Shown here: positions 1-24,116 of the stretch, in pieces
Numbering within the stretch: the stretch's first letter is position 1
Layout of the letters: the number at the start of each line of letters is the position of its first letter
Source: a virus
Taxonomy: Duplodnaviria; Heunggongvirae; Uroviricota; Caudoviricetes
Virus record (IMG/VR): IMGVR_UViG_2541047719_000002
Span: 1-43,543 of that record
Length of the DNA stretch: 43,543 bases
Reading direction: 5' to 3' (one strand)
Program-made: the position numbers and the translations under genes
Notes under the pieces: model-generated
Seen by the model: the letters and a program-made list of their open reading frames with translations, nothing else
What the model was told of the DNA's origin: nothing
Database searches by the model: none

Positions 1-1284
1 CTACTTCTTCGCCTCTGCAACCACTTTGCTACCCACGCCGCGGTTATTGTATTCCCACATGCGGTTGTAGTTAGTGTCATTCAGATTGCGCTGTACTTCG
101 TCGTTATCATCAACGCTGCCGGTGTTACCCGCAAATGGACGATTAGAGATCACCGCATCAGCCCACGGTTTGGCTGTGTTAAAACCTTCGTTGATGGCGC
201 TATCACGGATCACTACCTGACCGTTGGTATTGGCATCAACATCCAGCGAGCGGCCCAGTTGCGCCACGCCATCACCGGAAGCATTGAAACGGCTGTTTAC
301 GGCGAGGAAACCGTAGTAAATGTTGGACAGCGTAGCCGGTGCAAACACATACGCTTCTTGCTGGGTACGGGAGTTCACCACGCGGAATTCGGTGTTATCG
401 AACACCACTGCGCCGCGACCAGAAACGATATCCACATCCCCTTCAATATAGCTGTTGGTCACCAGCGTACGCGGCTGACGATTCGTTTCCAGACGGTTCT
501 GCACACCGCTGTTGGTGACAAAGAAGGTGTTCTGACGACCGAGAATGTTGACGTTATTGATCTGCACTTTGTCGCCATCAGTACGCAGTGCCACCGCCGG
601 ATGGTTACCCGCATCTACGCTATCGCCCAGCGTGTTTTCGATGGTCAGGTTTTGCAGTTGCAGGCCATTGTTTTGTGACCAGAAGACCGCAGAGCAGAGA
701 ACACCGATACTGTCGCTGCGTTTACTCTGGCAGCTATCGTACATATACCACGCCGGTTTACCTGGCATATATTTGCCGCGCGGGTTGACGTCGTGACGCC
801 AGTCGGCAGGGCTCATGCCACCATCAAGGGAAAGCCCAATCTTCACATCAATCGGTTTTTCACCTGTACCGTATAGAGTAATTCCACCCGGAGCGGCAGG
901 GACATACACCGTTCCCTGATACTCACCAGGCATCACGGCAATATACTGGCGCTTGTTGGTACGCTTGATAATTGCCGCATCTACCGCCGCCTGAATCGTG
1001 GTATGCGTTACACCTTGAGTACCCGCCGGGCCGACAACAAAGTCAGGTTGCGCAGGCAGGGTAATCGGGGAAGGATTCCACGCTGCCGCACCTGGTGTCA
1101 GGGATGCAAAATAGTGTTGAGCATCGAAATTCTGCGCTTCTTTTGCCGACAGAATCGGGCGAGAAGAGGTACCAGGCGCGGTTTGATCAGAAGGACGTTG
1201 ATCGGGCGGTGTTGAGCTACAGGCGGTCAGCGTCACGCCAAAAGCCAATGTCAGCGCCAGACGGGAAACTGAAAATGTGTTCAC
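1..1284 (-). CDS. ybhC: YbhC, pectinesterase-like outer-membrane lipoprotein (host gene flanking attB-lambda)
   Basis: 427-aa ORF with signal peptide and lipobox (LTACSS), recalled as E. coli YbhC; GTG start at 1282-1284; ends immediately left of the att core. Confidence 0.85.
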   Translation of the reverse strand: MNTFSVSRLALTLAFGVTLTACSSTPPDQRPSDQTAPGTSSRPILSAKEAQNFDAQHYFASLTPGAAAWNPSPITLPAQPDFVVGPAGTQGVTHTTIQAAVDAAIIKRTNKRQYIAVMPGEYQGTVYVPAAPGGITLYGTGEKPIDVKIGLSLDGGMSPADWRHDVNPRGKYMPGKPAWYMYDSCQSKRSDSIGVLCSAVFWSQNNGLQLQNLTIENTLGDSVDAGNHPAVALRTDGDKVQINNVNILGRQNTFFVTNSGVQNRLETNRQPRTLVTNSYIEGDVDIVSGRGAVVFDNTEFRVVNSRTQQEAYVFAPATLSNIYYGFLAVNSRFNASGDGVAQLGRSLDVDANTNGQVVIRDSAINEGFNTAKPWADAVISNRPFAGNTGSVDDNDEVQRNLNDTNYNRMWEYNNRGVGSKVVAEAKK

Positions 1285-1418: not shown

Positions 1419-2489
1419 TTATTTGATTTCAATTTTGTCCCACTCCCTGCCTCTGTCATCACGATACTGTGATGCCATGGTGTCCGACTTATGCCCGAGA
1501 AGATGTTGAGCAAACTTATCGCTTATCTGCTTCTCATAGAGTCTTGCAGACAAACTGCGCAACTCGTGAAAGGTAGGCGGATCCCCTTCGAAGGAAAGAC
1601 CTGATGCTTTTCGTGCGCGCATAAAATACCTTGATACTGTGCCGGATGAAAGCGGTTCGCGACGAGTAGATGCAATTATGGTTTCTCCGCCAAGAATCTC
1701 TTTGCATTTATCAAGTGTTTCCTTCATTGATATTCCGAGAGCATCAACATGCAATGCAGTTGGGATGGCAATTTTTACGCCTGTTTTGCTTTGCTCGACA
1801 TAAAGATATCCATCTACGATATCAGACCACTTCATTTCGCATAAATCACCAACTCGCTGCCCGGTAACAACAGCCAGTTCCATTGCAAGTCTAAGCCAAC
1901 ATGGTGATGATTCTGCTGCTTGATAAATTTTCAGGTATTCGTCAGCCGTAAGTCTTGATCTCCTTACCTCTGATTTTGCTGCGCGAGTGGCTGCGACCGG
2001 GTTTGTTGTTATATGGCCTTCAGCTATAGCCTCTCGGAATGCATCGCTCAGTGTTGATCTGATTAACTTGGCTGATGCCGACTTGCCCTCGTCTATGTAT
2101 CCATTGAGCATTGCCGCAATTTCTTTTGTGGTGATGTCTTCAAGTGGAGCATCAGGCAGACCCCTCCTTATTGCTTTAATTTTGCTCATGTAATTTATGA
2201 GTGTCTTCTGCTTGACTCCTCTGCTGGCCAGGATTTTTTCGTAGCGATCAAGCCATGAATGTAACGTAACGGAATTATCACTGTTGATTCTCGCTGTCAG
2301 AGGCTTGTGTTTGTGTCCTGAAAATAACTCAATGTTGGCCTGTATAGCTTCAGTGATTGCTATCCTCCTGTCTCGGCCTAATCCAAACTCTTTACCCGTC
2401 CTTGGGTCCCTGTAGCAGTAATATCCATTGTTTCTTATATAAAGGTTAGGGGGTAAATCCCGGCGCTCATGACTTCGCCTTCTTCCCAT
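1419..2489 (-). CDS. int: Integrase, tyrosine recombinase (lambda Int)
   Basis: 356-aa ORF recalled as essentially identical to lambda Int (MGRRRSHERRDLPPNLYIRNNGYYCYRDPRTGKEF...); adjacent to attL; ATG at 2487-2489. Confidence 0.95.
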   Translation of the reverse strand: MGRRRSHERRDLPPNLYIRNNGYYCYRDPRTGKEFGLGRDRRIAITEAIQANIELFSGHKHKPLTARINSDNSVTLHSWLDRYEKILASRGVKQKTLINYMSKIKAIRRGLPDAPLEDITTKEIAAMLNGYIDEGKSASAKLIRSTLSDAFREAIAEGHITTNPVAATRAAKSEVRRSRLTADEYLKIYQAAESSPCWLRLAMELAVVTGQRVGDLCEMKWSDIVDGYLYVEQSKTGVKIAIPTALHVDALGISMKETLDKCKEILGGETIIASTRREPLSSGTVSRYFMRARKASGLSFEGDPPTFHELRSLSARLYEKQISDKFAQHLLGHKSDTMASQYRDDRGREWDKIEIK

Positions 2490-8219: not shown

Positions 8220-8744
8220 AATTCACCTCAGAATGGACACGGCCCAAGGAAATAACGCTGATTTAATACTTCGACTCGGGACAAATTAAGGCATACCCGC
8301 ATTCCTTGGCGGTCACCATTATGGCGATACCAGAGAGCTTTCTGCGTGTACATGCGTCTCTGTAACTTGCTCTCCTTCACTGTGGTTGCAAGTGACATGA
8401 ATATCTCCTTCGTTACCGATTAAATCTTTCATCTGACGAATGAATTCTTCGTCTGACCAGTTATCTGTAAAACTCATTTCCTGCGATACCACGGAAGGTT
8501 GATAGCTGATTTCATCGCTTTATTTGCTTCAAGCCACATTTTTGAATCACCAATAAATCTGGCTATTACTGCTTTGTTCTGTGCAGCACGAAGCATCTGG
8601 TGATTAATGGCTATTTCATTGCGCATAACGCCTCCAGTTGTTTCTTTGCTGCTCTGATTAATTGTTTAACTCGGCGTGATAATTCAGATTCGTGCGGGTA
8701 GAAAGCGGACATGACGCCGCTACCCGCTAAAATATATTCATTCA

Positions 8745-9257
8745 TTATTTGCTCCTGTAGAATTCGCCGTGATGCTTTCTGGCAAAGTCGCAGTAAGCTT
8801 TTTTGGCATCTTCTAATTCATTAAAGTACCCTAGATGTTTTTTCTTTCCGTTTAATTTACCATAGGCAGCCCACTTTCTACTTTCCTTCTTCCATGTGAC
8901 TCCTTTGCAACCTGATTTGTTGAGGGTGTTTATTTTACTATTCATTGAATTCTGTGAGTAAGTTGCAAGCCTCAGATTGCAAATTCTGTTATCTGTCTTA
9001 ATGCCATTTATATGGTCGATAATACCTTCAGGCTCAACACCGAAAGTGATAATCCATGCAAGTCTATGTGCAGCATAGTGTCTTCCGTTAATGAAAATCC
9101 TTAAGTAGCCGCTTGTTGTTATTGTTCCGGCAGTTCCACCTATCTTCCTTGCTCCATAAGATTTTAGCCATGTGAACTCACCAGAAATAGGGTTATATTT
9201 GACAACATTATTAATCTCACTTAGGGAAATTAATTCAAGAATCTTTATAAATGCCAT
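8745..9257 (-). CDS. HNH homing endonuclease with AP2-like DNA-binding domain (copy 1)
   Basis: HNH_3-type motif (HRLAW...IDHINGIKTDNRICNLR) plus C-terminal AP2-like segment (GVTW...KWAAYGK...LGYF); start set at ATG 9255-9257; AT-rich gene. Confidence 0.8.
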   Translation of the reverse strand: MAFIKILELISLSEINNVVKYNPISGEFTWLKSYGARKIGGTAGTITTSGYLRIFINGRHYAAHRLAWIITFGVEPEGIIDHINGIKTDNRICNLRLATYSQNSMNSKINTLNKSGCKGVTWKKESRKWAAYGKLNGKKKHLGYFNELEDAKKAYCDFARKHHGEFYRSK

Positions 9258-9341
9258 TTTATATCCTATCAACTGCGTTCATTAATCAGCGTTTACGCTC
9301 ATGAATAAACACCTCTCGTGAAGCGTTATTGGTATGCATAT

Positions 9342-9365
9342 AAAAAAGCCCTCACACTGGAGGGC
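9342..9365 (-). terminator. Rho-independent terminator (minus strand)
   Basis: Minus-strand hairpin GCCCTC-CAGTGT-GAGGGC followed by TTTTTTAT; lies between 9502..9702 and HNH copy 1. Confidence 0.5.
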
Positions 9366-9501
9366 AAAGAAGATTTCCAATAATCAGAACAAGTCGGCTC
9401 CTGTTTAGTTACGAGCGACATTGCTCCGTGTATTCACTCGTTGGAATGAATACACAGTGCAGTGTTTATTCTGTTGTTTATGCCAAAAATGAAGGCCACC
9501 A

Positions 9502-9702
9502 TCAGGCAGCCTTGTTATTCTGTTTACCAAGTTCTCTGGCAATCATTGCCGTCGTTCGTATTGCCCATTTATCGACATATTTCCCATCCTCCATTACAGG
9601 AAACATTTCTTCAGGCTTAACCATGCATTCCGATTGCAGCTTGCATCCATTGCATCGCTTGAATTGTCCACACCATTGATTTTTATCAATAGTCGTAGTC
9701 AT
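9502..9702 (-). CDS. Hypothetical small Cys-rich protein
   Basis: 66-aa ORF with CxxxxxC...CxxC pattern (CGQFKRCNGCKLQSEC). Confidence 0.4.
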   Translation of the reverse strand: MTTTIDKNQWCGQFKRCNGCKLQSECMVKPEEMFPVMEDGKYVDKWAIRTTAMIARELGKQNNKAA

Positions 9703-9829
9703 ACGGATAGTCCTGGTATTGTTCCATCACATCCTGAGGATGCTCTTCGAACTCTTCAAATTCTTCTTCCATATATCACCTCTGTGGCTTGCTGCCAAAA
9801 CAATGAACCATCCGGAAATTCCAGATAGT

Positions 9830-10054
9830 TCATAATTCACTCTTCAATACTTCCAGCTTACTAATAGCCGAAAGATATCCGCGCTGATAGGGCATCATCA
9901 TTCCTTCGAGCTTGCCACTTCTTAACTCATCCCTGAGCAATTGTATTGCTTTATCAATAACCTCTGACTTAGCGTCCTTTATGGCTTGCTTGCGGGGCTT
10001 TGCTTTCTGCTTTGGCAGATTTCTCAAGCATGATGGAATGTATGTCTGATTCAT
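9830..10054 (-). CDS. Hypothetical small basic protein (early-left; cIII/kil position)
   Basis: 74-aa ORF from ATG 10052-10054, starting just after the stop of the N-like remnant. Confidence 0.4.
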   Translation of the reverse strand: MNQTYIPSCLRNLPKQKAKPRKQAIKDAKSEVIDKAIQLLRDELRSGKLEGMMMPYQRGYLSAISKLEVLKSEL

Positions 10055-10057
10055 CAC

Positions 10058-10204
10058 TTACCTCGCTGTCAGTTGTTTTGATTTCCGGTAGCCTGCCGAG
10101 TAAATGGCTACGTTTGGCAGGCACACAGCACCACCTTCAACTTCCTTCTAACGCGTTCCTGCAAGCGAAATGGCTCTTGAAACACGTTTACTGGCTCCGT
10201 CCAT
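10058..10204 (-). pseudogene. C-terminal remnant of an N-type (P22 gene 24-like) antiterminator gene, with in-frame TAG
   Basis: Minus-strand translation ...DGASKRVSRAISLAGTR-TAG-KEVEGGAVCLPNVAIYSAGYRKSKQLTAR-TAA matches my recollection of the P22 gp24 C-terminus (KAISLAGTRQKEVEGGSVLLPGVALYAAGHRKSKQITAR); TAG at 10148-10150 sits where P22 has Gln; 5' end overlaps the 3' end of HNH copy 2. Confidence 0.45.
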
Positions 10205-10721
10205 GATTTTCATGAAAGCCATATAGTGCATTGGCTTCTTTCCTTGCTTGTTTGGCATCATCTAAAAGTTTGAATGAGCCTAGGTATTTTCGTTTTCCAT
10301 CCACAGTTATCGATGCAACATAAAACCCATGCTCTTTTCTTTCTTCAACACCTGTAACTCCAGTTGATGAAGATGATTTTAAAGGCATGTTTTTCATATT
10401 CTCTTTGAAAGAAACGCTTCTTAAATTGGAGATTCTGTTGTCATCCTTAACGCCGTTTATGTGATCAATCACATCAGGCCAGTAGCCATGCACGTAAAGC
10501 CATGCAAGTCTGTGAGACTTAAATTTTTTACCTCCAATATTTATTCTCAGATAACCCTTGTTGTCAGGTGAGCCAGCCTTTTTACCTGGATACTTCTTGT
10601 TCCACGTCAAGGCAGCTCTGTTATCCGCAAACAAATGCTTTGCTCTCGGCTTCCAATAAAAGTCACCACTCACAGGATTGTAATGAAGAATCTCCCTTAC
10701 AGACACTTGAGTAAGATCCAC
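10188..10721 (-). CDS. HNH homing endonuclease with AP2-like domain (copy 2)
   Basis: 177-aa ORF, GTG start with AGGAGG RBS; HNH_3 motif (HRLAWLYVHGYWPDVIDHINGVKDDNRISNLR) and AP2-like C-terminus (GVTGV...LGSF...ALYGFHENHGRSQ). Confidence 0.8.
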   Translation of the reverse strand: MDLTQVSVREILHYNPVSGDFYWKPRAKHLFADNRAALTWNKKYPGKKAGSPDNKGYLRINIGGKKFKSHRLAWLYVHGYWPDVIDHINGVKDDNRISNLRSVSFKENMKNMPLKSSSSTGVTGVEERKEHGFYVASITVDGKRKYLGSFKLLDDAKQARKEANALYGFHENHGRSQ

Positions 10722-10857
10722 TTAAACCTCCTAACAAAAACACTTCAATAACCCTCCGGTTATGGAAATGTTCTTTTGTAGTGAGCAGCATTGCCGTTCA
10801 TCCTGAACCCGCCGCGCTCCCGACGCATGGTTTAAAGACGCGCCGTTCGTCTATGGG

Positions 10858-10952
10858 CTTATGATGTACTTAAAGTTCATTAATGTAAAGTACCAATAGT
10901 ACATTTTATGGGTATAAAAAGCTCACTACATCATAAGTTAGTGAACTTTAAG
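10858..10952 (-). promoter_or_regulatory. Candidate PL promoter and OL operator(s)
   Basis: Minus strand TTTACA-17 bp-CATCAT with an operator-like TGAACTTTAAGTACA (12/15 match to the OR palindrome) inside the spacer; second TGAAC half-site near 10942; immediately left of cI 3' end. Confidence 0.35.
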
Positions 10953-10963
10953 GAAATTTATTT

Positions 10964-11671
10964 TTATCCGAATCGCTTGTAATCGATTGACTGCCTAATG
11001 AGGACTTTGGCTAGAATGTGAAGTTGCTCTTCTTCACCTTCTTCTATGTACCATCGATCATAAGCGGCATTGTCAGAGATGACGGCAAGCCTGTTCTTTT
11101 GCATTTGCAGGCGCTTAACGTGCATTGTTTTCCCGTATACAAACACATAAATGCCATCGCCATCAAAATAGGTTATGGATACATCAACAAAGATCTCATC
11201 TCCCGGATTGATGGTTCCCTCCATGCTGTCACCGCGAACCGTGATGACTTTTACGCTTTCCTGTGGCCTTCCATTAAATAAAATTCTTGCCTGCTCGGGC
11301 GTATATTCAATTGCTCTTATCTTTTCTATAAATTCATTGGAAACCATGGTTCCTGGCCCGGCGCTCGCCTGAACATCCAATACATCAACACGATAAGAAT
11401 CATTTGATCTTGATAGATGATTTACCGTGATACCGTCATAATCAGCATAGCCATGCAGATATGCAGCAGTAGTTCCCAGCACCGAAGCCAGAGATTCCAT
11501 CTTGTCTTTTCTTGGTATTGACTCCCCGTTGAACCATTTACTAATGGCTTTTGGTGTGACCTTAAGCCTGACAGCTAAATCAGCCTGCCTACCATGCAAA
11601 GGTAATCCCGCTTTATCACAGGCCAGCGCAAGCCTCTGCGAGAAAGTTTCACGCTCTTTCTGTTGAACCAT
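10964..11671 (-). CDS. cI: CI-like prophage repressor (HTH plus LexA-like S24 autopeptidase domain)
   Basis: N-terminal HTH region (TFSQRLALACDKAGLPLHGRQADLAVRLKVTPKAISKWFNG) and C-terminal S24 motifs (GDSMEGTINPGDEIFVD...VKRL); start set at ATG 11669-11671; upstream ATGs at 11716 and 11728 are alternatives. Confidence 0.8.
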   Translation of the reverse strand: MVQQKERETFSQRLALACDKAGLPLHGRQADLAVRLKVTPKAISKWFNGESIPRKDKMESLASVLGTTAAYLHGYADYDGITVNHLSRSNDSYRVDVLDVQASAGPGTMVSNEFIEKIRAIEYTPEQARILFNGRPQESVKVITVRGDSMEGTINPGDEIFVDVSITYFDGDGIYVFVYGKTMHVKRLQMQKNRLAVISDNAAYDRWYIEEGEEEQLHILAKVLIRQSIDYKRFG

Positions 11672-11740
11672 AAGTTCAACTATATTAGGTATTGACTGTA
11701 CTATCAGTTCCGTCATAATATGAACCATAAGTTCACCACA
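11661..11740. promoter_or_regulatory. Divergent PRM/PR region with two copies of a 17-bp palindromic operator
   Basis: TTGAACCATAAGTTCAA at 11663..11679 and TGAACCATAAGTTCA at 11721..11735; PR TTGACT (11692-11697), 16-bp spacer, CATAAT (11714-11719) reading toward cro; leftward TAATAT 10 nt before the cI ATG. Confidence 0.55.
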
Positions 11741-11750
11741 GGAGAGAAGC

Positions 11751-11981
11751 ATGAACGAAGTTACGTTTGCAGAAGTTATCAAATCCGTTCGAGTTTCTGT
11801 TGTGGCTGATGTTTGTGGACTTACGCCAAAAGCCATCTATAAGTGGCTTGAGCGTGGTTCTCTGCCGCGCACCGAGTTCACTGGTGAAACCGAATATGCG
11901 GATAAGATCGCCAAGGCATCAGGCGGCAAGTACTCAGCAGCACAGATTCGCCGTATCGGTAAACAGCAGTTTGTCATGTAA
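11751..11981 (+). CDS. cro: Cro-like transcriptional regulator
   Basis: 76-aa ORF divergent from cI, immediately downstream of PR/operator; HTH-like segment (CGLTPKAIYKWLERGSLP). Confidence 0.6.
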   Translation: MNEVTFAEVIKSVRVSVVADVCGLTPKAIYKWLERGSLPRTEFTGETEYADKIAKASGGKYSAAQIRRIGKQQFVM

Positions 11982-12102
11982 TAAAAATGTACTTTCAGTA
12001 CCGAACGGCCCGGTATACGGTCGGGTGCCCGGCGTGGTCAAGGATGACTGTCAATGGTGCACGATAAAAAACCAAATTATTTACCTATGGAGATAGTAAG
12101 AA

Positions 12103-12399
12103 ATGGCACAAGCAAGCTACAGCAAGCCAACACAGCGAGAAATTGATCGCGCTGAAACTGATTTACTCATCAACCTGTCAACGCTTACCCAGCGCGGTCT
12201 GGCAAAGATGATTGGCTGTCATGAATCGAAGATAAGCAGAACGGACTGGAGATTTATTGCTTCGGTCTTGTGTGCTTTCGGAATGGCATCAGACATCAGT
12301 CCGATTAGCAGGGCTTTTAAGTATGCGCTTGATGAAATCACAAAGAAAAAATCCCCGGCTGCCACCGAGGATTTTAAGCAAATTGATATGCAATTCTGA
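12103..12399 (+). CDS. cII: CII-like transcriptional activator
   Basis: 98-aa ORF; HTH segment and C-terminus (KKKSPAATEDFKQIDMQF) resemble lambda CII (…KKRPAATERSEQIQMEF) as recalled; GGAG RBS. Confidence 0.8.
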   Translation: MAQASYSKPTQREIDRAETDLLINLSTLTQRGLAKMIGCHESKISRTDWRFIASVLCAFGMASDISPISRAFKYALDEITKKKSPAATEDFKQIDMQF

Positions 12400-12431
12400 G
12401 GGAATTACTGGATCAATCCACAGGAGTAATT

Positions 12432-12587
12432 ATGACAAAACGTCGTAAGAAATACCAGGAAAAAGAAGAGATTCGACACCCTGATTCACCTGAGGGATTA
12501 GTGGTAGCCGCAGCAAATAACAGGGCGTTCGCAGAGCGCCTTGTTGGTGTTTACAGACTAGCCAAAGCAGGAGTGAAACATGGGCGT
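12432..12587 (+). CDS. Hypothetical small basic protein between cII and replication genes
   Basis: 51-aa ORF not in the track, ATG with AGGAG RBS at 5-nt spacing; 3' end overlaps start of O-like gene. Confidence 0.35.
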
Positions 12588-13401
12588 CGTTAAGTTAGCT
12601 GATTACAGGCCTCAACTGGAGGTCGTGGAGCATCGCGTGGCAGATACCGAAGATGGTTTCATGCGCGTTGCTAACGAGATTACCGACAGTCTGCTGATGG
12701 CTGATTTAACCGTCCGGCAGTTGAAGGTGATGCTCGCTATCATGCGCAAGACATACGGATTCAATAAGCCGATGGATCGACTCACAAACACGCAGATAGC
12801 AGCCATGACAGGTATTCATCACACTCATGTTTGCGCTGCCAAGCACCAGCTTATCGAGCGTAAATTCCTCATTGCTGATGGCGTGAAAATCGGAGTGAAC
12901 AAGGTGGTTTCTCAGTGGATTAGCCAGGACAGCTTAACATTAGCTAAAACAGCTAATAAAACATTAGCCAAGTCGGCTAATGGGTATAAGCCAAGTCAGC
13001 TAAACACAAAAGACAATATACAAAAGACAATAAATACAAATACCCCCTTACCCCCTAACGGGGGTGGCGATGGGCAGGTTAAACCTGAACGTCGCAAGGC
13101 AGAACGAATCGACTACGAATCCTTCCTGAACGCCTACAACACCGAAGTCGGTGACAGACTGCCACACGCTGTTGCGGTCAACGAGAAACGCAAACGCCGC
13201 CTGAAGAAAATCATCCCGCAACTGAAAACGCCAAACGTGGACGGTTTCAGAGCGTATGTCAGGGCGTTTGTGCATCAGGCCAAGCCGTTTTACTTCGGAG
13301 ACAACGACACGGGCTGGACAGCTGATTTTGATTACCTGCTGAGGGAAGATTCGTTAACGGGAGTACGGGAAGGGAAGTTTGCAGACAGGGGGATTGCATG
13401 A
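12580..13401 (+). CDS. Replication initiation protein (lambda O-like N-terminal domain)
   Basis: 273-aa ORF; N-terminal region typical of phage O-type initiators; contains internal iterons; ATGA overlap with helicase gene. Confidence 0.8.
12922..13045. repeat. ori: Candidate replication origin: four iterons AGCYAnnnCnGCTAA plus adjacent AT-rich tract, inside the O-like gene
   Basis: Iterons start at 12922, 12942, 12966, 12989 (spacing 20-24 bp), followed by AT-rich 13004..13045; same arrangement as lambda ori within O. Confidence 0.55.
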
Positions 13402-14774
13402 AACAGGATATCGAAGCGAGCGTTATCGGTGGACTGCTGATTGGTGGATTAACACCAACCGCCAGCGACGTTCTGGCAACGCTGGAGCCGGAAGCGTTTT
13501 CAATTCCGCTCTACAGGAAAGCCTTCGAGGTTATCCGCAAGCAGGCGAGAAACAGAAACCTAATCGATGCGCTGATGGTTGCCGAGGCGTGCGGAGAGGA
13601 GCATTTCACGTCAATCCTGATGACCAGCAAAAACTGCCCGAGTGCCGCAAACCTGAAGGGATATGCCGGAATGGTCGCGGATAACTATCACCGCCGTCTG
13701 GTGCTGGAAATCATGGATGAAATGCGTGAACCAATTCAGAGCGGAACCATCGACGCATCGAGTCAGGCGATGGATGAACTTGTAAAGCGTCTTTCAGTCA
13801 TCAGAAAGCCCCGTGACGAGGTTAAACCTGTACGGTTAGGGGAAATCATTACTGACTACACTGACACGCTTGACAGGCGTCTGAGGAACGGAGAAGAGTC
13901 AGATACCCTGAAGACCGGAATCGAAGAACTTGATGCCATCACCGGAGGGATGAACGCGGAAGACCTGGTGATAATCGCTGCTCGTCCTGGTATGGGGAAA
14001 ACCGAACTGGCGCTGAAGATTGCCGAAGGCGTTGCAAGCCGCGTTATTCCTGGTTCTGACGTCCGGCGCGGGGTATTGATTTTCTCAATGGAAATGAGCG
14101 CATTGCAGATTGCAGAGCGAAGCATTGCCAACGCCGGGAGGATGTCGGTTAGCGTACTGCGAAATCCTGCATCGATGGATGACGAAGGCTGGGCGCGTGT
14201 TGCTAACGGCATAAGTCAGCTTGCAGATTTGGATGTATGGGTAGTCGATGCCTCGCGGTTATCGGTCGAAGAAATACGCTCAATCGCAGAACGGCACAAA
14301 CAGGAAAATCCAAACCTCTCACTCATCATGGTGGATTATCTTGGCCTGATTGAGAAGCCGAAAGCAGATCGCAACGACCTCGCAATTGCTCACATCTCCG
14401 GAAGCCTGAAGGCGATGGCGAAAGACCTGAAAACGCCTGTTATCTCCCTAAGTCAGCTTTCACGCGATGTTGAGAAGCGACCAAACAAACGCCCGACAAA
14501 CGCAGATTTGCGTGATTCAGGAAGCATTGAACAGGACGCAGACTCAATCATCATGCTCTATCGGGAAGCGGTATATGACGAGAACAGTAGCGCCGCGCCA
14601 TTTGCTGAAATCATCGTGACGAAAAACCGTTTTGGCTCGCTTGGTACGGTTTACCAGCGGTTCTGCAACGGACACTTTGTTGCATGTGACCAGGATGAAG
14701 CCAGACAGATTTGCACAGCATCAAATGCACCTGCTGCACGTGGCAGACGATATGCACAAGGGGCTGACGTATGA
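13398..14774 (+). CDS. Replicative DNA helicase (DnaB family, P22 gene 12-like)
   Basis: 458-aa ORF with DnaB N-terminal domain and Walker A ([13 protein letters not shown]) and RecA-like core motifs. Confidence 0.9.
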
Positions 14775-14854
14775 CCATCTACATCACTGAGTTAATAACA
14801 GGCCTGCTGGTAATCGCAGGCCTTTTTATTTGGGGGAGAGTAAATCGTGGCTGA
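14771..14854 (+). CDS. Hypothetical 27-aa hydrophobic peptide
   Basis: ATG overlapping helicase stop (ATGA); single predicted TM segment; not in the track (below its length cutoff). Confidence 0.3.
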
Positions 14855-15053
14855 GTTAATTTTCTCTGCATTGAGGATTCTCGGTGCTATGTGGATGGTG
14901 GCGACGTTCATTGTTGTTGCCAGCAGTTTTGTCCGGTTGGTAGGCGAAGGTAAAGACCTGGTAGGTGTGCTTTTCGGTAGCATTTTCCTGTGGGTGATTA
15001 TCGGTGTTATGCCTGTCGCTGTAGCAAAAATGGCGTGGCGTTTTGTGAGTTGA
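14847..15053 (+). CDS. Hypothetical small membrane protein (two predicted TM segments)
   Basis: 68-aa ORF, GTG start preceded by GGGGGAGAG RBS, overlaps preceding ORF stop. Confidence 0.4.
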   Translation: MAELIFSALRILGAMWMVATFIVVASSFVRLVGEGKDLVGVLFGSIFLWVIIGVMPVAVAKMAWRFVS

Positions 15054-15070
15054 ACTGAGGGTAAGTATCG

Positions 15071-15391
15071 ATGGACGAATCAAGAAAGCAGTTTGAAGAA
15101 AGTTGGTTTCGACGTGGAGGCGAATCCTCAGACCTTATCCGTTACCCTGAAAATCACCATGAAATTGGCAGTGGTAATATTGGTGGTCAATACGTGATGG
15201 ACGATGTTCAAGGCCACTGGCAAACGTGGCAGGCATCGCGATCAGCTATTGAAATAACCGCGCCAAAGTTTATCGACAGCAGAGAAGCATTAGCCAAAGG
15301 GTTTACTGTTGATTATTCCAATGGCTTCGGTGATGCAATGGATGCTTATGAGGAAAACATCCGCTCTGCTGGAGTCAAAGTGAAGGAGTAA
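15071..15391 (+). CDS. Hypothetical nin-region protein
   Basis: 106-aa ORF, ATG start. Confidence 0.5.
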   Translation: MDESRKQFEESWFRRGGESSDLIRYPENHHEIGSGNIGGQYVMDDVQGHWQTWQASRSAIEITAPKFIDSREALAKGFTVDYSNGFGDAMDAYEENIRSAGVKVKE

Positions 15392-15393
15392 CG

Positions 15394-15804
15394 ATGAAGC
15401 AAACAATCTTCCTCCGAAGTAAGCAACAACAGCAAGCCGCAATAAATGCCATCCTCGCAACACCACTCGATAAAGACAAGCCAGTCACCATCCGCATTAC
15501 TGACTACAAGCGCAACCTTGACCAGAACGCAAAATTTCACGCGATGCTGGCGGATATCGCTTGTCAGGTTCAATGGTGCGGCAAATGGTTAAAACCAGAA
15601 CAATGGAAGGTTTTGTTGATAAGCGGTCATGCAGTGGCAACAAAGCAGGAAGCTGATGTTTTGCCCGGCCTTGAAGGCGAATACGTCAACATTCGCGAAA
15701 GCAGCGCGCAGATGAGTGTGAAGCGTATGGCAAGTCTGATTGAGTACACGACAGCATGGGCTATTGGTCAGGGTGTCAGATTTACCGACAGGAGGTACGA
15801 ATGA
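15394..15804 (+). CDS. ninB: NinB (Orf family recombination protein)
   Basis: 136-aa ORF similar to lambda NinB as recalled (…[27 protein letters not shown]…). Confidence 0.8.
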
Positions 15805-15977
15805 GACGACAGCGACGAAGTTTCACCGACATCATCTGCGAAAACTGCAAATACCTTCCAACGAAACGCTCCAGAAATAAACGCAAGCCAATCCCAAAAG
15901 AATCTGACGTAAAAACCTTCAACTACACGGCTCACCTGTGGGATATCCGGTGGCTAAGACATCGTGCGAGGAAATGA
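15801..15977 (+). CDS. ninE: NinE-like protein
   Basis: 58-aa ORF ([58 protein letters not shown]) matching recalled lambda NinE; GGAGG RBS; ATGA overlaps. Confidence 0.6.
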
Positions 15978-16924
15978 CGATGACTGCGTATTACAACGAA
16001 ATAGATCCGTATGCAGCGCAATGGCTGCGTAACTTAATTGACGCTGGAGAAATTGCCCCCGGTTATGTAGATGAAAGGAGTATTGAAGATGTCACACCAG
16101 GTGATTTGCGAGGATTTACCCAGCACCACTTTTTTGCAGGAATCGGAGTTTGGAGCTATGCACTTAGAAAAGCAGGATGGCCAGACAACAAGAGTATCTG
16201 GACAGGAAGTTGCCCATGCCAACCTTTCAGCTCGGCAGGCAAAGGAAAAGGGGTTGATGACGAGCGGCACTTATGGCCGGCATTCTTCTGGCTTATTGAA
16301 AAATGCAATCCTGGCATCGTTATTGGCGAACAGGTTGCAAGCGCAGACGGCCTCGCTTGGCTCGACCTTGTACAAACTGACTTGGAAGGTGCGAACTACA
16401 CCTCTGCAGGTACCGATATTTGCGCTGCGGGCTTCGGTTCTCCGCACATCAGGCAGCGATTGTATTGGGTGGCCTACTCCAACGACAAATATCAACTTTC
16501 AGCCAGAGACGCGCAGGGGAATTCAGAACCTATCTGGATGCGTGAGACTAGCGGGATGGCAAACTCCTTTAGCGAACGATGCAACAGGTTCAACGCATTG
16601 CTACAGCGGAAAAGACAAGAGCGGAACCCCAAGAATCTGCTTGAAACTTCCCGGGACGGTGAAGCTATGTACCCATTACCGGTTAACGGCTTCTGGAGAG
16701 ATGCAGACTGGCTTTACTGTAGAGATGAAAAATATCGTCCAGTTAGACCCGGCTCATTCCCGATGGTTAATGGCATTGCCAAAAGCTTGGGACGAGGCAA
16801 GTCCACACTGGGAAGAATGGCAAAGCGCAATCAAGATCAGCGAATTATTGGATATGGAAACGCAATCAATGCAGAAGTAGCAACGGCATTCGTGAAAGTT
16901 TGTATGGAGGTTGTTAATGCTTAG
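15974..16924 (+). CDS. Orphan DNA (cytosine-5) methyltransferase
   Basis: C5-MTase motifs: motif [10 protein letters not shown], motif [17 protein letters not shown]-like IGEQV; no adjacent restriction endonuclease gene. Confidence 0.8.
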
Positions 16925-17102
16925 CCCATCCCAATCCATTCAATACCAGAAAGAAAGCGTCGAGCGAGCTTTAACGTGCGCTAACTGCGGTAAGAAGCTG
17001 CGTGTGCTGGAAGTTCACGTGTGTGAGCGTTGTATATATGAATGCTTAAATATGGTGGAACATAATGAGAAATATAAGCAACATAGACGAATTAAGAAAT
17101 AA
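16917..17102 (+). pseudogene. ninF: ninF 5' fragment (NinF residues 1-39 fused to a 22-codon out-of-context tail), interrupted by HNH gene insertion
   Basis: [39 protein letters not shown] matches recalled lambda NinF up to codon 39 (17033); sequence diverges from 17034. Confidence 0.6.
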
Positions 17103-17571
17103 ATTATCATATGATGATGTTTTAGGTGTACTTAGATGGAAAGTGTCTCCTTCTAATAATGTTAAGGTTGGCAGTGTTGCTGGTTACATTAGGAGTGATG
17201 GTTATAGGATGTTAACTATCGATGGTGTAATTACTTATGCTCACCACGTTATATGGATGATAAATAATGGTGAGATTCCATTAGGGTATAAAATTGATCA
17301 TATAAATGGAGTAAGGTCAGATAATAGGCTATCTAATCTTCGATTGGTTACACACCAACAGAATGCACAGAACCAAAAGAGAAAAATAACCAATTCGTCA
17401 GGAGTGACTGGAGTATATTTCAATAAAGAGAGATGTAAGTGGATTGCGAATATATGCGTAGATGGGCGCACCAAATATCTTGGAATATTTGCTAGCATCA
17501 TTGACGCTATTGCAGAAAGGAAGAGGGCAGAAAAAGAACTGGGTTTTCATGAAAACCATGGTAGACCATAA
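17065..17571 (+). CDS. HNH homing endonuclease with AP2-like domain (copy 3), inserted within ninF
   Basis: 168-aa ORF, ATG with RBS; HNH_3 motif (HHVIWMINNGEIPLGYKIDHINGVRSDNRLSNLR) and AP2-like C-terminus (GVTGVYF...LGIF...LGFHENHGRP); AT-rich. Confidence 0.85.
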   Translation: MRNISNIDELRNKLSYDDVLGVLRWKVSPSNNVKVGSVAGYIRSDGYRMLTIDGVITYAHHVIWMINNGEIPLGYKIDHINGVRSDNRLSNLRLVTHQQNAQNQKRKITNSSGVTGVYFNKERCKWIANICVDGRTKYLGIFASIIDAIAERKRAEKELGFHENHGRP

Positions 17572-17572
17572 C

Positions 17573-17632
17573 TGCGCAGAACTGATGAGCGATCCGAATA
17601 GCTCAATGTACGAGGAAGAAGACGATGAGTGA
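17573..17632 (+). pseudogene. ninF: ninF 3' fragment (encodes CAELMSDPNSSMYEEEDDE)
   Basis: Directly after the HNH stop; in frame with the ninF 5' fragment if 17034..17572 is removed; matches recalled lambda NinF C-terminus. Confidence 0.5.
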
Positions 17633-19558: not shown

Positions 19559-19633
19559 GGGTCAGTCGTATAAAGGTAATCACGGAAGGCTGTTAACCTT
19601 CTTATCGTGGTTCGAGTCCACGCTGTCCCGCCA
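19559..19633 (+). tRNA. tRNA-Asn-like (anticodon GUU), atypical, possibly degenerate
   Basis: Anticodon stem GAAGG/CCTTC with loop CTGTTAA; T-arm CGTGG-TTCGAGT-CCACG; discriminator G and encoded CCA; acceptor stem 6/7 with a U-U mismatch; D-arm pairs poorly. Confidence 0.45.
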
Positions 19634-19638
19634 AACAT

Positions 19639-19714
19639 GCTGGTTTAGCTCCAATGGTAGAGCAGTCGCCTTGTAAGCGAATGGGTAGCGGTTCAAGTCC
19701 GTTAACCAGCACCA
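19639..19714 (+). tRNA. tRNA-Thr (anticodon UGU)
   Basis: 76-nt cloverleaf folded by hand: perfect 7-bp acceptor stem GCTGGTT/AACCAGC, D-arm GCTC-CAATGGTA-GAGC, anticodon loop CTTGTAA, T-arm AGCGG-TTCAAGT-CCGTT, encoded CCA. Confidence 0.75.
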
Positions 19715-22278: not shown

Positions 22279-22704
22279 ATGGCGACTGAGAAAAAGAATG
22301 TCGGTCGCCCTTCGGATTACCTGCCGGAGGTGGCTGATGATATCTGTGCGCTGCTTGCCTCCGGGGAAAGTCTGGTTAAGGTTTGCAAGCGCCCCGGCAT
22401 GCCAGCAAAGGCTACTGTATTTCGCTGGCTGTCAGAGCATGACGAATTTAGAGACAAGTACGCGAAGGCAACTGAGGCGCGAGCTGATTCTATTTTCGAA
22501 GAGATATTCGAAATTGCTGACACTGCGATTCCAGATGCTGCTGAGGTGGCAAAGGCAAGACTTCGCGTTGATACCCGTAAATGGGCGTTGGCCCGAATGA
22601 ATCCCCGTAAGTATGGCGACAAGGTAACTAACGAGCTTGTCGGCAAAGACGGCGGCGCAATCCAGATTGAAACATCACCGATGAGCACTCTATTCGGAAA
22701 ATGA
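22279..22704 (+). CDS. Terminase small subunit (Sf6 gp1-like)
   Basis: 141-aa ORF closely resembling recalled Sf6 small terminase (…GRPSDY.PEVADDIC.LL.SGESL.KVCKRPGMP…); directly upstream of and overlapping the large terminase. Confidence 0.8.
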   Translation: MATEKKNVGRPSDYLPEVADDICALLASGESLVKVCKRPGMPAKATVFRWLSEHDEFRDKYAKATEARADSIFEEIFEIADTAIPDAAEVAKARLRVDTRKWALARMNPRKYGDKVTNELVGKDGGAIQIETSPMSTLFGK

Positions 22705-24116
22705 CCTCGATTAATCCTATCTTTGAACCGTTCATTGAGGCGCATCGCTACAAAGTCGCCAAAGGCGGTCGAGGTAGCGGTAAGTCATGGGCAATTGCGA
22801 GACTGCTTGTTGAAGCGGCGCGTCGGCAGCCAGTGCGTATTCTCTGCGCTCGTGAACTGCAAAACAGTATCAGCGATTCGGTAATCCGGTTGCTTGAAGA
22901 TACCATCGAGCGTGAAGGGTATTCGGCTGAGTTTGAAATTCAGCGTTCCATGATTCGTCATCTCGGAACGAATGCTGAGTTCATGTTCTACGGCATCAAA
23001 AACAACCCGACGAAGATTAAATCGCTCGAAGGCATTGATATCTGCTGGGTGGAAGAAGCGGAAGCGGTAACGAAGGAATCATGGGATATCCTGATTCCAA
23101 CCATCCGTAAGCCGTTCTCTGAAATATGGGTGAGCTTTAACCCGAAGAACATCCTCGACGATACCTATCAGCGATTCGTCGTAAATCCTCCTGATGATAT
23201 TTGTCTGCTGACGGTGAACTACACCGACAACCCGCACTTTCCTGAAGTTCTCCGTCTGGAGATGGAAGAGTGCAAACGCAGAAACCCGACACTGTATCGT
23301 CACATCTGGCTTGGTGAGCCAGTGAGCGCAAGTGATATGGCAATCATCAAACGTGAATGGCTTGAAGCTGCTACCGATGCGCACAAGAAACTCGGATGGA
23401 AAGCGAAAGGCGCTGTTGTCTCTGCGCATGACCCGTCAGATACAGGACCAGATGCTAAAGGTTATGCATCGCGTCACGGTTCGGTAGTTAAGCGCATTGC
23501 CGAAGGTCTGCTGATGGACATCAACGAGGGTGCTGACTGGGCTACTTCGCTGGCGATTGAAGACGGCGCTGACCATTACCTGTGGGATGGTGATGGTGTT
23601 GGTGCCGGGCTACGCAGACAGACAACGGAAGCGTTCTCCGGCAAGAAAATCACCGCCACGATGTTCAAGGGCAGCGAATCGCCATTCGATGAAGATGCAC
23701 CATATCAGGCCGGAGCATGGGCTGATGAAGTCGTGCAGGGCGACAACGTTCGCACTATTGGCGATGTGTTCCGTAATAAGCGAGCGCAATTCTATTACGC
23801 GCTGGCTGACAGGCTGTATCTGACATATCGGGCGGTTGTCCACGGTGAGTATGCAGACCCCGACGACATGCTGAGTTTCGACAAAGAAGCGATAGGCGAG
23901 AAGATGCTGGAGAAGCTGTTTGCAGAACTGACGCAGATTCAGCGCAAATTCAATAACAACGGGAAGCTGGAGCTTATGACTAAGGTCGAAATGAAGCAGA
24001 AGCTCGGTATTCCATCTCCTAACCTGGCTGATGCGCTGATGATGTGTATGCATTGCCCGGAGTCGGCTGCGCAACCCGACTATTCCAGTTACTCAATTCC
24101 TTGTGGTGTAGGTTGA
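22701..24116 (+). CDS. Terminase large subunit (P22/Sf6 gp2-like, headful packaging)
   Basis: 471-aa ORF with Walker A GGRGSGKS and C-terminal nuclease domain. Confidence 0.95.
   Translation: MTSINPIFEPFIEAHRYKVAKGGRGSGKSWAIARLLVEAARRQPVRILCARELQNSISDSVIRLLEDTIEREGYSAEFEIQRSMIRHLGTNAEFMFYGIKNNPTKIKSLEGIDICWVEEAEAVTKESWDILIPTIRKPFSEIWVSFNPKNILDDTYQRFVVNPPDDICLLTVNYTDNPHFPEVLRLEMEECKRRNPTLYRHIWLGEPVSASDMAIIKREWLEAATDAHKKLGWKAKGAVVSAHDPSDTGPDAKGYASRHGSVVKRIAEGLLMDINEGADWATSLAIEDGADHYLWDGDGVGAGLRRQTTEAFSGKKITATMFKGSESPFDEDAPYQAGAWADEVVQGDNVRTIGDVFRNKRAQFYYALADRLYLTYRAVVHGEYADPDDMLSFDKEAIGEKMLEKLFAELTQIQRKFNNNGKLELMTKVEMKQKLGIPSPNLADALMMCMHCPESAAQPDYSSYSIPCGVG

Follow-up and report, generated by a model that had tools for sequence, protein, structure and literature searches.

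Three free-standing HNH_3/AP2-type nuclease genes, probably homing elements, at separate early-region sites of a P22-like prophage

The window analysed here is the whole 43,543-nucleotide stretch of the IMG/VR virus record IMGVR_UViG_2541047719_000002 and represents a single P22-like prophage of E. coli, as indicated by its integrase, terminase, portal, sar RNA and tailspike. It carries three small nuclease genes, designated here HNH1, HNH2 and HNH3, which a preliminary description made from the DNA letters had presented as HNH-AP2 homing endonuclease genes. All three open reading frames (ORFs) are indeed present and intact:

8745..9257, minus strand: HNH1, 170 amino acids (aa), HNH_3/AP2-type (HNH_3 E=1.7e-15; AP2 29-31 bits; phrog_99 E=1.5e-68)
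10188..10721, minus strand: HNH2, 177 aa, HNH_3-type (HNH_3 E=2.7e-15; phrog_99 E=6.9e-66)
17065..17571, plus strand: HNH3, 168 aa, HNH_3/AP2-fold (HNH_3 E=1.2e-19; phrog_99 E=3.4e-70; model with a predicted local distance difference test (pLDDT) value of 90.2)

The Pfam HNH_3 domain (PF13392) is recognised with 56.8, 56.2 and 70.1 bits in HNH1, HNH2 and HNH3, above the gathering cut-off of 24.8 bits, and the phrog_99 family “HNH endonuclease” matches all three proteins with E values of 1e-66 to 1e-70. The segment IDHINGxxxDNRxxNLR is invariant in the full-length three-way alignment, so the common catalytic core proposed earlier is real and the objection that the proteins might lack one does not hold. 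Each copy has the Asp-His, Asn and Asn residues of the beta-beta-alpha-metal motif, and these are invariant across the three; over the 52 homologues used for assessing residue conservation, D78, N91, R93 and N103 are invariant, while H79, N87 and N100 are nearly so. Zinc-binding cysteines accompanying the HNH motif were not found in the three sequences. As had been noted, the genes are AT-rich, with a GC content of 0.372 (HNH1), 0.399 (HNH2) and 0.353 (HNH3) against 0.47 for the window. A tblastn search of the window with all three proteins revealed neither a fourth copy nor degraded fragments, and NCBIfam gave no match for these proteins or for NinF', the altered ninF product described below. 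PADLOC returned weak matches only, all to models labelled “homing endonuclease”, and a role as a defence-system component was rejected for this reason.

A profile built from the three proteins convincingly matched one solved structure, I-HmuI (1U3E, E=1.5e-7). The match takes in the HNH core as well as the N-terminal DNA-binding region; the D-H...N...N residues align with the VVDHKDGN...NLR...N segment, and I-HmuI is also the top overall Foldseek match of the AlphaFold model of HNH3 (probability 1.00). The AP2-like C-terminal domain of the preliminary description was sustained, although not through Pfam. By Pfam, AP2 remains below its cut-off of 33.3 bits in all three proteins (31.2 bits for HNH1, 16.9 for HNH3, no match for HNH2). 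However, many homologues carry the PF00847+PF13392 architecture, and in the HNH3 model (mean pLDDT 90.2) the C-terminal strands 117-120, 125-132 and 135-142 with the helix 145-159 resemble plant AP2 domains such as TEM1 (root-mean-square deviation 2.0 Å over 54 columns, probability 1.00 in Foldseek). Further fold matches, from plants and apicomplexans, include ERF1, WRI1 and PF14_0633. At the level of the predicted structure the AP2 fold is confirmed for HNH3, and alignment to HNH3 suggests the same fold in HNH1 and HNH2.

The similarity of HNH2 and HNH3 at their 3' ends, also pointed out earlier at the DNA level, has a different meaning from the one that a repeat would have. The 20-mer GGYTTTCATGAAAAYCATGG is found exactly twice in the window, at these two ends, while 0 occurrences are expected by chance. 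It encodes the family-wide C-terminal motif GFHENHG, in which H162, H165 and G166 are nearly invariant among the homologues, and the palindrome TTTCATGAAA is a consequence of the Phe-His-Glu codons. The exact match is real, but it reflects conservation of the protein, and the 20-mer was therefore rejected as a DNA repeat or a target scar. Apart from it, DNA similarity among the three genes is essentially zero and pairwise protein identity is 37-40%, which excludes a recent intragenomic duplication. The suggested spread of paralogues within this genome is thus abandoned: the three genes are different alleles that were acquired independently.

HNH3 interrupts the nin-region gene ninF:

16917..17102, plus strand: NinF', the 5' part of ninF running into the insert (translation compared with empty NinF alleles)
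17029..17571, plus strand: HNH3 insert, 543 base pairs (bp)
17572..17632, plus strand: orphan 3' fragment of ninF (CAELMSDPNSSMYEEEDDE followed by a stop), out of frame with HNH3

The insert lies inside the ninF coding sequence, 507 of its 543 bp are occupied by the ORF, and its junctions (GAGC/GTTGTATAT on the left and CCATAA/CTGCGCAGAA on the right) are identical in 7 loci. HNH3 is out of frame with both parts of ninF. Intact ninF contains GTGTGTGAGCACTGCTGCGCAGAACTG, and the empty ninF alleles read GTGTGTGAGCACTGCTG(C/T)GCAGAA, corresponding to VCEHCCAE. In the occupied gene NinF' ends with VHVCERCIYECLNMVEHNEKYKQHRRIKK and a stop, so that both CxxC pairs are kept (CANC...CERC) and the acidic tail is swapped for a basic one. 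The surroundings of this insert differ among the occupied loci: ninX, ninE, a hypothetical gene or a C5-methyltransferase gene precedes HNH3, and ninG, a 70-aa ORF with DUF1364 and RusA, or a 130-aa ORF follows it. Among HNH3 variants, 13 synonymous changes were counted against 5 nonsynonymous ones. Because HNH3 interrupts ninF, the occupied loci are annotated as “NinF (x2)”, sometimes with a partial HNH pseudogene, although the HNH ORF is intact. In the loci L007, L010 and L011 (about 2001-2568 in each), for example, PGAP reports a partial or pseudogene HNH and a 51-aa “NinF” coding sequence where HNH3 is really full-length. At a further locus (L014:2018-2696) the ninF allele reads CSDCC, in place of CEHCC, precisely where HNH3 inserts, and a different, NUMOD4-HNH endonuclease gene follows this allele directly. 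The CSDCC form may be a cleavage-resistant variant of the target, and nuclease genes may have a hot spot here.

HNH1 lies in the early-left (pL) operon and belongs to a cassette which rewrites the beginning of the adjacent cIII-like gene:

8611..8745, minus strand: cIII-like ORF, 44 aa (translation compared with HK022 CIII and with ET245; HK022 annotation)
8728..9306, minus strand: HNH1 cassette, 579 bp replacing 49 bp of the empty sites (alignment with ET245, S56 and HK022)
9348..9365, minus strand: terminator-like hairpin upstream of HNH1 in the pL operon, in empty and occupied loci alike

Three independent cassette-free sequences, those of E. coli ET245, E. coli S56 and phage HK022, agree with the window as far as 8727 and again from 9307. 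In HK022 the small ORF upstream of kil is annotated as cIII. The cassette supplies the ribosome-binding site and the first six codons of this gene, MNEYIL replacing MMHFQL with the remainder identical; in TAATG the stop of HNH1 and the new start of cIII overlap. In each of the 14 occupied loci examined, cIII and kil directly follow HNH1, whereas the gene content on the opposite side is variable. The DNA variants of HNH1 at other loci, including those found by DNA search, are all synonymous. Three terminator-like hairpins precede HNH1, which would therefore need antiterminated transcription. In Combat2C1 (L018/L042) a 138-aa zf-His_Me/HNH_3 endonuclease gene is located between the repressor and HNH1 (L042:9334-9750); its product is unrelated to HNH1-3 (no blastp match), and two different nuclease genes thus stand side by side in that pL operon.

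HNH2 separates an HK022-type putL region from a decayed N gene:

10058..10187, minus strand: remnant of P22-type gene 24 (N), gp24 residues ~55-100 with an internal TAG (translation; blastn against P22 gene 24)
10135..10857, minus strand: HNH2 block common to all occupied loci examined, namely the window, GPEC1446, LWY24 and Salmonella phage UPF_BP1 (blastn boundaries, alignments)
10779..~10963-10975, minus strand: HK022-type oL/pL and putL region, identical to HK022

HNH2 comes first in gene order after pL/putL and begins with GTG behind a GGAGG Shine-Dalgarno sequence; a promoter-like site was found at 10889-10861 in the oL/pL region. The window and HK022 have the same sequence all the way from cI across oL/pL and putL, and HK022 matches positions 10779-11900 at 99.4%. 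The identity stops at GCTGCTCA (10779), where the HNH2 cassette starts, and the novel DNA relative to HK022-type empty sites covers 10070-10778. In HK022 itself the putL-nun junction, which represents the empty HNH2 site, reads GCAATGCTGCTCA/TTAGCGAGAAGG. The HNH2 block is linked to at least three repressor types and is also present in a Salmonella P22-like phage, UPF_BP1.

The N remnant downstream of HNH2 is devoid of the N-terminal part of the protein, and in GPEC1446 PGAP labels it “N peptide, missing N-terminus”. It is this part of N that carries the RNA-binding arginine-rich motif. HK022 antiterminates transcription by means of a cis-acting put RNA, without an N protein. The HK022-type put site therefore probably makes N dispensable in the present phage, which would rely on put-type cis-RNA antitermination and tolerate the decayed N gene.

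To place these genes in a population, we counted their presence and absence in 5,426 complete E. coli genomes. HNH1 was found in 10 of them, HNH2 in 8 and HNH3 in 45. The corresponding flanks are present in about 2,279 (HNH1) and 1,541 (HNH2) genomes and ninF in about 1,695, so that approximately 0.4%, 0.5% and 2.2% of the loci with cognate flanks are occupied, respectively. For ninF this means 47 occupied copies out of 2,119, with up to 6 copies per genome, and the HNH3 matches always overlap a NinF annotation. Full-length matches are about 98-100% identical to HNH1-3 on different mosaic backbones, and all full-length copies examined are intact. Insertion sequence (IS) elements interrupt the genes elsewhere: an IS3-family element HNH3 (L012:763-1991), IS1A HNH1 (L019:2155-2852) and IS100 HNH2 (L022:2317-4030), which shows decay of these genes in resident prophages. 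A larger collection of assemblies indexes proteins identical to HNH1 in 905 blocks and proteins identical to HNH2 in 257.

None of the complete E. coli genomes carries two of the three genes. The exact trio is rare, and the expected frequency of a triple carrier under independence is approximately 5e-7, a value to be read with the fact that the window was singled out precisely for having three copies. Among 50,697 deposited phage genomes HNH2 was detected only in UPF_BP1, and HNH1 and HNH3 were not detected at the DNA level. Protein-level tblastn of the deposited phages with HNH3 shows that the family is abundant among virulent phages of Klebsiella, Escherichia and Salmonella: 2,900 records were matched, with as many as 6 copies in one genome, and none of these matches reaches 60% identity to HNH3.

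The density of such genes had been regarded as unusual for a temperate lambdoid phage, and this view has to be given up. When 10 HNH2-carrying lambdoid prophages were viewed with 10-kb flanks, 3 of the 10 held three or four HNH_3 genes (four in L034, three in L026 and L031), and two were counted in each of L025, L029 and L032; in these prophages the two to four genes fall within 20 kb. At least nine alleles of the HNH1-3 family, 28-52% identical to each other, occupy about seven sites in the prophages examined: between pL/putL and N; upstream of cIII (2 alleles); between P and nin; between ninB and dam; inside ninF; between ybcO and rusA; and between Q and the holin gene (3 alleles). The allele between ybcO and rusA is 99% identical in L009 and L031, whereas alleles at different sites reach only the 28-52% given above. 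More distant HNH genes include the NUMOD4-HNH gene after ninF, a 230-aa gene of the ea region and the 138-aa zf-His_Me/HNH_3 gene beside the repressor. HNH genes in ninR regions have a published precedent (PMC4118853).

These data bear on an alternative according to which the genes are vertically inherited, lineage-typical components at fixed positions. Each allele does always occur at the same position. Nevertheless, near-identical backbones are empty at exactly these positions, only 10, 8 and 45 genomes are occupied against some 1,500-2,300 with the flanks, and the same allele stands beside unrelated modules and even in a Salmonella phage. Vertical inheritance can hardly be the explanation, and in this respect the preliminary description withstood the survey of related prophages, with its occupancy of about 0.4-2.2%.

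We consider it probable that HNH1, HNH2 and HNH3 are three separate free-standing homing endonuclease genes of the HNH_3/AP2 (I-HmuI-like) type, each specific for its own lambdoid site. The family membership, the intact catalytic core, the precise site-specific presence or absence and the occurrence of one allele on different backbones are direct observations. A single allele recurring at a given site on different backbones agrees with the prediction of site-specific homing. Cleavage, the identity of the targets and super-Mendelian transfer are inferred, and the ongoing homing proposed earlier is plausible.

The mechanism may be envisaged as follows. All three genes are co-oriented with the early operons (HNH2 first after pL/putL, HNH1 farther down the pL operon and HNH3 in the nin region of the pR operon), and no sense-strand promoter-like sites were found inside any of the three cassettes. 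Because of this co-orientation their expression would be expected only in lytic growth: a lysogen would not express them, and the proteins would appear after induction or infection. If a related phage or a co-resident prophage with an empty site is present in the same cell, the enzyme would nick or cut at or near this site, and phage or host recombination would repair the break from the cassette-carrying copy, so that the cassette of ~0.55-0.7 kb is copied in. Since one E. coli genome may have up to six copies of ninF, induction of polylysogens would offer ample opportunity for this process. The cassettes seem to be adapted to their positions: HNH1 gives cIII a new in-frame start, HNH3 restores the second CxxC of NinF, and HNH2 may be tolerated in an N gene which is probably dispensable.

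Other nuclease contexts do not fit. A group I intron or intein was rejected, as Rfam finds only the sar RNA and two tRNAs in the window and the reading frames are unfit for it. A terminase-associated HNH function of the HK97 gp74 type was rejected as well: the genes are parts of the pL operon or the nin region, at a distance of 5-14 kb from the gene for the large terminase, and a fourth copy is absent. By eye, no obvious motif is shared among the three empty-site sequences, for which no formal motif search was made.

Several observations weigh against homing. In the flanks of ninF and of cIII/kil we found no gradient of single-nucleotide polymorphisms (SNPs) diagnostic of occupancy. HNH1 and HNH2 are replacements (579 for 49 bp and ~710 for ~150 bp) rather than clean insertions, and the HNH2 block has a left boundary that varies with the sequence used for comparison (10069, 10127 or 10135). 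Nonsynonymous changes prevail among the few HNH2 variants (6 of 8 in UPF_BP1, 2 of 2 in LWY24), IS-disrupted copies exist elsewhere in E. coli (L012, L019, L022), and a frequency of 0.4-2.2% is low for an efficient drive element. The block common to the occupied ninF alleles comprises the insert with ~70 bp upstream and ~56 bp downstream, which are the limits of ninF conservation. The HNH1 cassette is associated with at least three kil/cIII haplotypes that are also found among empty loci, the exchange lying within ~120-150 bp of the junction. These flank haplotypes show that the cassettes moved between backgrounds; without a SNP gradient, ordinary recombination between mosaic lambdoid phages could give the same pattern, so that the haplotypes do not separate it from break-driven conversion.

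The absence of a conversion gradient is therefore compatible with another scenario, in which the genes are passive accessory cassettes (“morons”) moved by the general homologous or illegitimate recombination of lambdoid phages, their nucleases being no longer, or never, self-promoting at these sites. The replacement blocks of HNH1 and HNH2 with their comparator-dependent boundaries resemble ordinary mosaic joints, the occupancy is low, and the region is highly mosaic, the 11.5 kb tested being covered to 80% or more by no single record. However, a passenger would not be expected to conserve its ORF and catalytic residues and, in HNH1, to vary only synonymously. Moreover, general recombination accounts poorly for a 543-bp HNH3 insert with base-identical junctions within a coding sequence on at least four backbones, or for the pairing of allele and site which recurs over about seven sites. 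We regard passive movement as rather unlikely, although it retains appreciable weight.

The same lytic timing could also serve co-opted weapons or helpers, which would cut competing phages or co-resident prophages, or stimulate recombination, and be kept for their benefit to the phage. Early lytic expression would be expected for all three genes, HNH2 being the very first one of the pL operon; the supposed targets are common in E. coli prophages (ninF in 2,119 places of 1,695 genomes, up to 6 per genome); several prophages accumulate three or four such genes; and competitive and anti-defence roles of phage homing endonuclease genes (HEGs) have been reported. Yet the act itself would be mechanistically the same as plain homing, and nothing here separates the two. 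The only label from the PADLOC defence library is “homing endonuclease”, and the low population frequency speaks against a strong benefit. Such co-option appears quite improbable to us, and free-standing homing is retained as the explanation of the three genes.

The remaining features of the window characterise the phage that harbours them:

1..1284, minus strand: ybhC-like pectinesterase gene, 427 aa, adjoining the integrase gene
1419..2489, minus strand: lambda-type integrase gene, a marker of the P22-like prophage
19559..19714, plus strand: tRNA-Asn (GTT) and tRNA-Thr (TGT), downstream of the Q region
22701..24116: large terminase gene
38357..38423, minus strand: sar antisense RNA (Rfam RF00262, 71.6 bits), marking the P22-type immI region
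42413..43543, plus strand: transposase ORF (phrog_506), directly after the tailspike gene and running off the right end of the window

The modules comprise an Erf/Rad52-type early-left region, HK022-type immunity, the nin region, terminase and portal genes, and the tailspike. The phage is a mosaic: its immunity is that of HK022, its N remnant is P22-type and its virion module P22-like. The ybhC-like gene is also seen beside several related prophages, and since the neighbourhood of integrase, pectinesterase and aconitase genes is common to the prophages L025, L031, L040 and L041, which it flanks, integration near the classical lambda attachment region is suggested. The pair of tRNA-Asn and tRNA-Thr genes behind Q occurs in ETEC4091 (L011) too.

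Compared with the preliminary description, three points are new: the position of HNH3 in ninF, that of HNH2 behind an HK022-type putL, in an N gene that has decayed, and the rewriting of the cIII start by HNH1. The main value added by this analysis lies in the ninF interruption with its restored zinc knuckle, the rewritten cIII start, HNH2 between putL and a dead N, and the catalogue of alleles. These loci give concrete, testable pairs of nuclease and candidate target (start region of cIII, boundary of putL, zinc knuckle of NinF) in the best-studied temperate phages, and natural empty alleles are at hand in lambda, HK022 and P22. If the enzymes are active, it can be tested directly whether nuclease breaks shape the boundaries of lambdoid mosaics, and also how a homing gene lives inside a coding sequence without an intron. 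There is a lesson for annotation as well, since one clean insertion was miscalled as “NinF (x2)” with partial HNH pseudogenes.

A broader idea can be put forward tentatively, and we would call it conceivable rather than probable. The lambdoid and P22-like prophages of enterobacteria would host a guild of site-specific HNH-AP2 nucleases, whose breaks would be a major and unappreciated cause of mosaic module boundaries. The cassettes would have evolved replacement gene ends (the cIII start, the NinF zinc knuckle) for residing in coding sequences without an intron, and prophages with three or four of them, the present one included, would act as recombination hubs.

Among known systems, I-HmuI is the closest to HNH1-3 in both sequence and fold, by virtue of its aligned N-terminal DNA-binding region and HNH core. 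I-HmuI is encoded in a group I intron of the Bacillus phage SPO1; it nicks a single strand, and its C-terminal domain is of the helix-turn-helix type. HNH1-3, in contrast, are free-standing, with neither an intron nor room for one, and their C-terminal domain is assigned to the AP2 fold by the HNH3 model; global superposition with I-HmuI gives a poor TM of 0.46, at an overall identity of about 20%.

The T4-type free-standing Seg and Mob endonucleases share with our genes the small size, the lack of introns and inteins, the location between or within phage genes, the presence or absence at fixed sites, and a spread presumed to proceed via break repair with flanking co-conversion. They belong to virulent phages and several have demonstrated cleavage and homing, while HNH1-3 reside in a temperate prophage, with expression expected from early operons, and are known from sequence. 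The nearest precedent for HNH3 in ninF is reportedly the mobE-type HNH insertion that splits nrdA of Aeromonas phage Aeh1 in two. Unlike nrdA, ninF does not yield two working halves; NinF is given a substitute C-terminus. The “intronless homing” of Seg and Mob enzymes is reviewed in PMC2988022, and mobE is treated in PMC2790892.

The combination of HNH and AP2 domains defines an established homing endonuclease family (Magnani et al. 2004, Plant Cell; cited in PMC10448857). Like our proteins, this family has an N-terminal HNH and a C-terminal AP2 DNA-binding domain; it was described in cyanobacteria, protists and phages, whereas HNH1-3 occupy fixed sites in E. coli prophages of the lambdoid or P22-like kind. 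Barth et al. (2023, PMC10448857) dealt with IPA-HNH HEGs and with “nuclease genes at boundaries of genetic exchange” and found HNH+AP2 genes to be enriched in phages. The likeness is in the location of nuclease genes at recombination boundaries, the HNH1-3 cassettes lying at mosaic joints of the lambdoid early region; the IPA-HNH domains, however, are too divergent for Pfam HNH_3, while those of HNH1-3 are canonical. The words “temperate”, “prophage” and “lambd...” do not occur in the text of PMC10448857.

In P22-like phages, gene 31 of epsilon34 is a putative HNH homing endonuclease gene (PMC2629481), and it resembles ours in being an HNH gene of homing type, located in the early-left operon of a temperate, P22-like phage. 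By its description it is set apart as an in-frame eaE fusion, akin to endonucleases of phages that infect Gram-positive bacteria and located at another site. Taken against these systems, the elements are ordinary, free-standing HNH-AP2 homing genes being well known in phages, and it is the alleles and the sites described here that are new.

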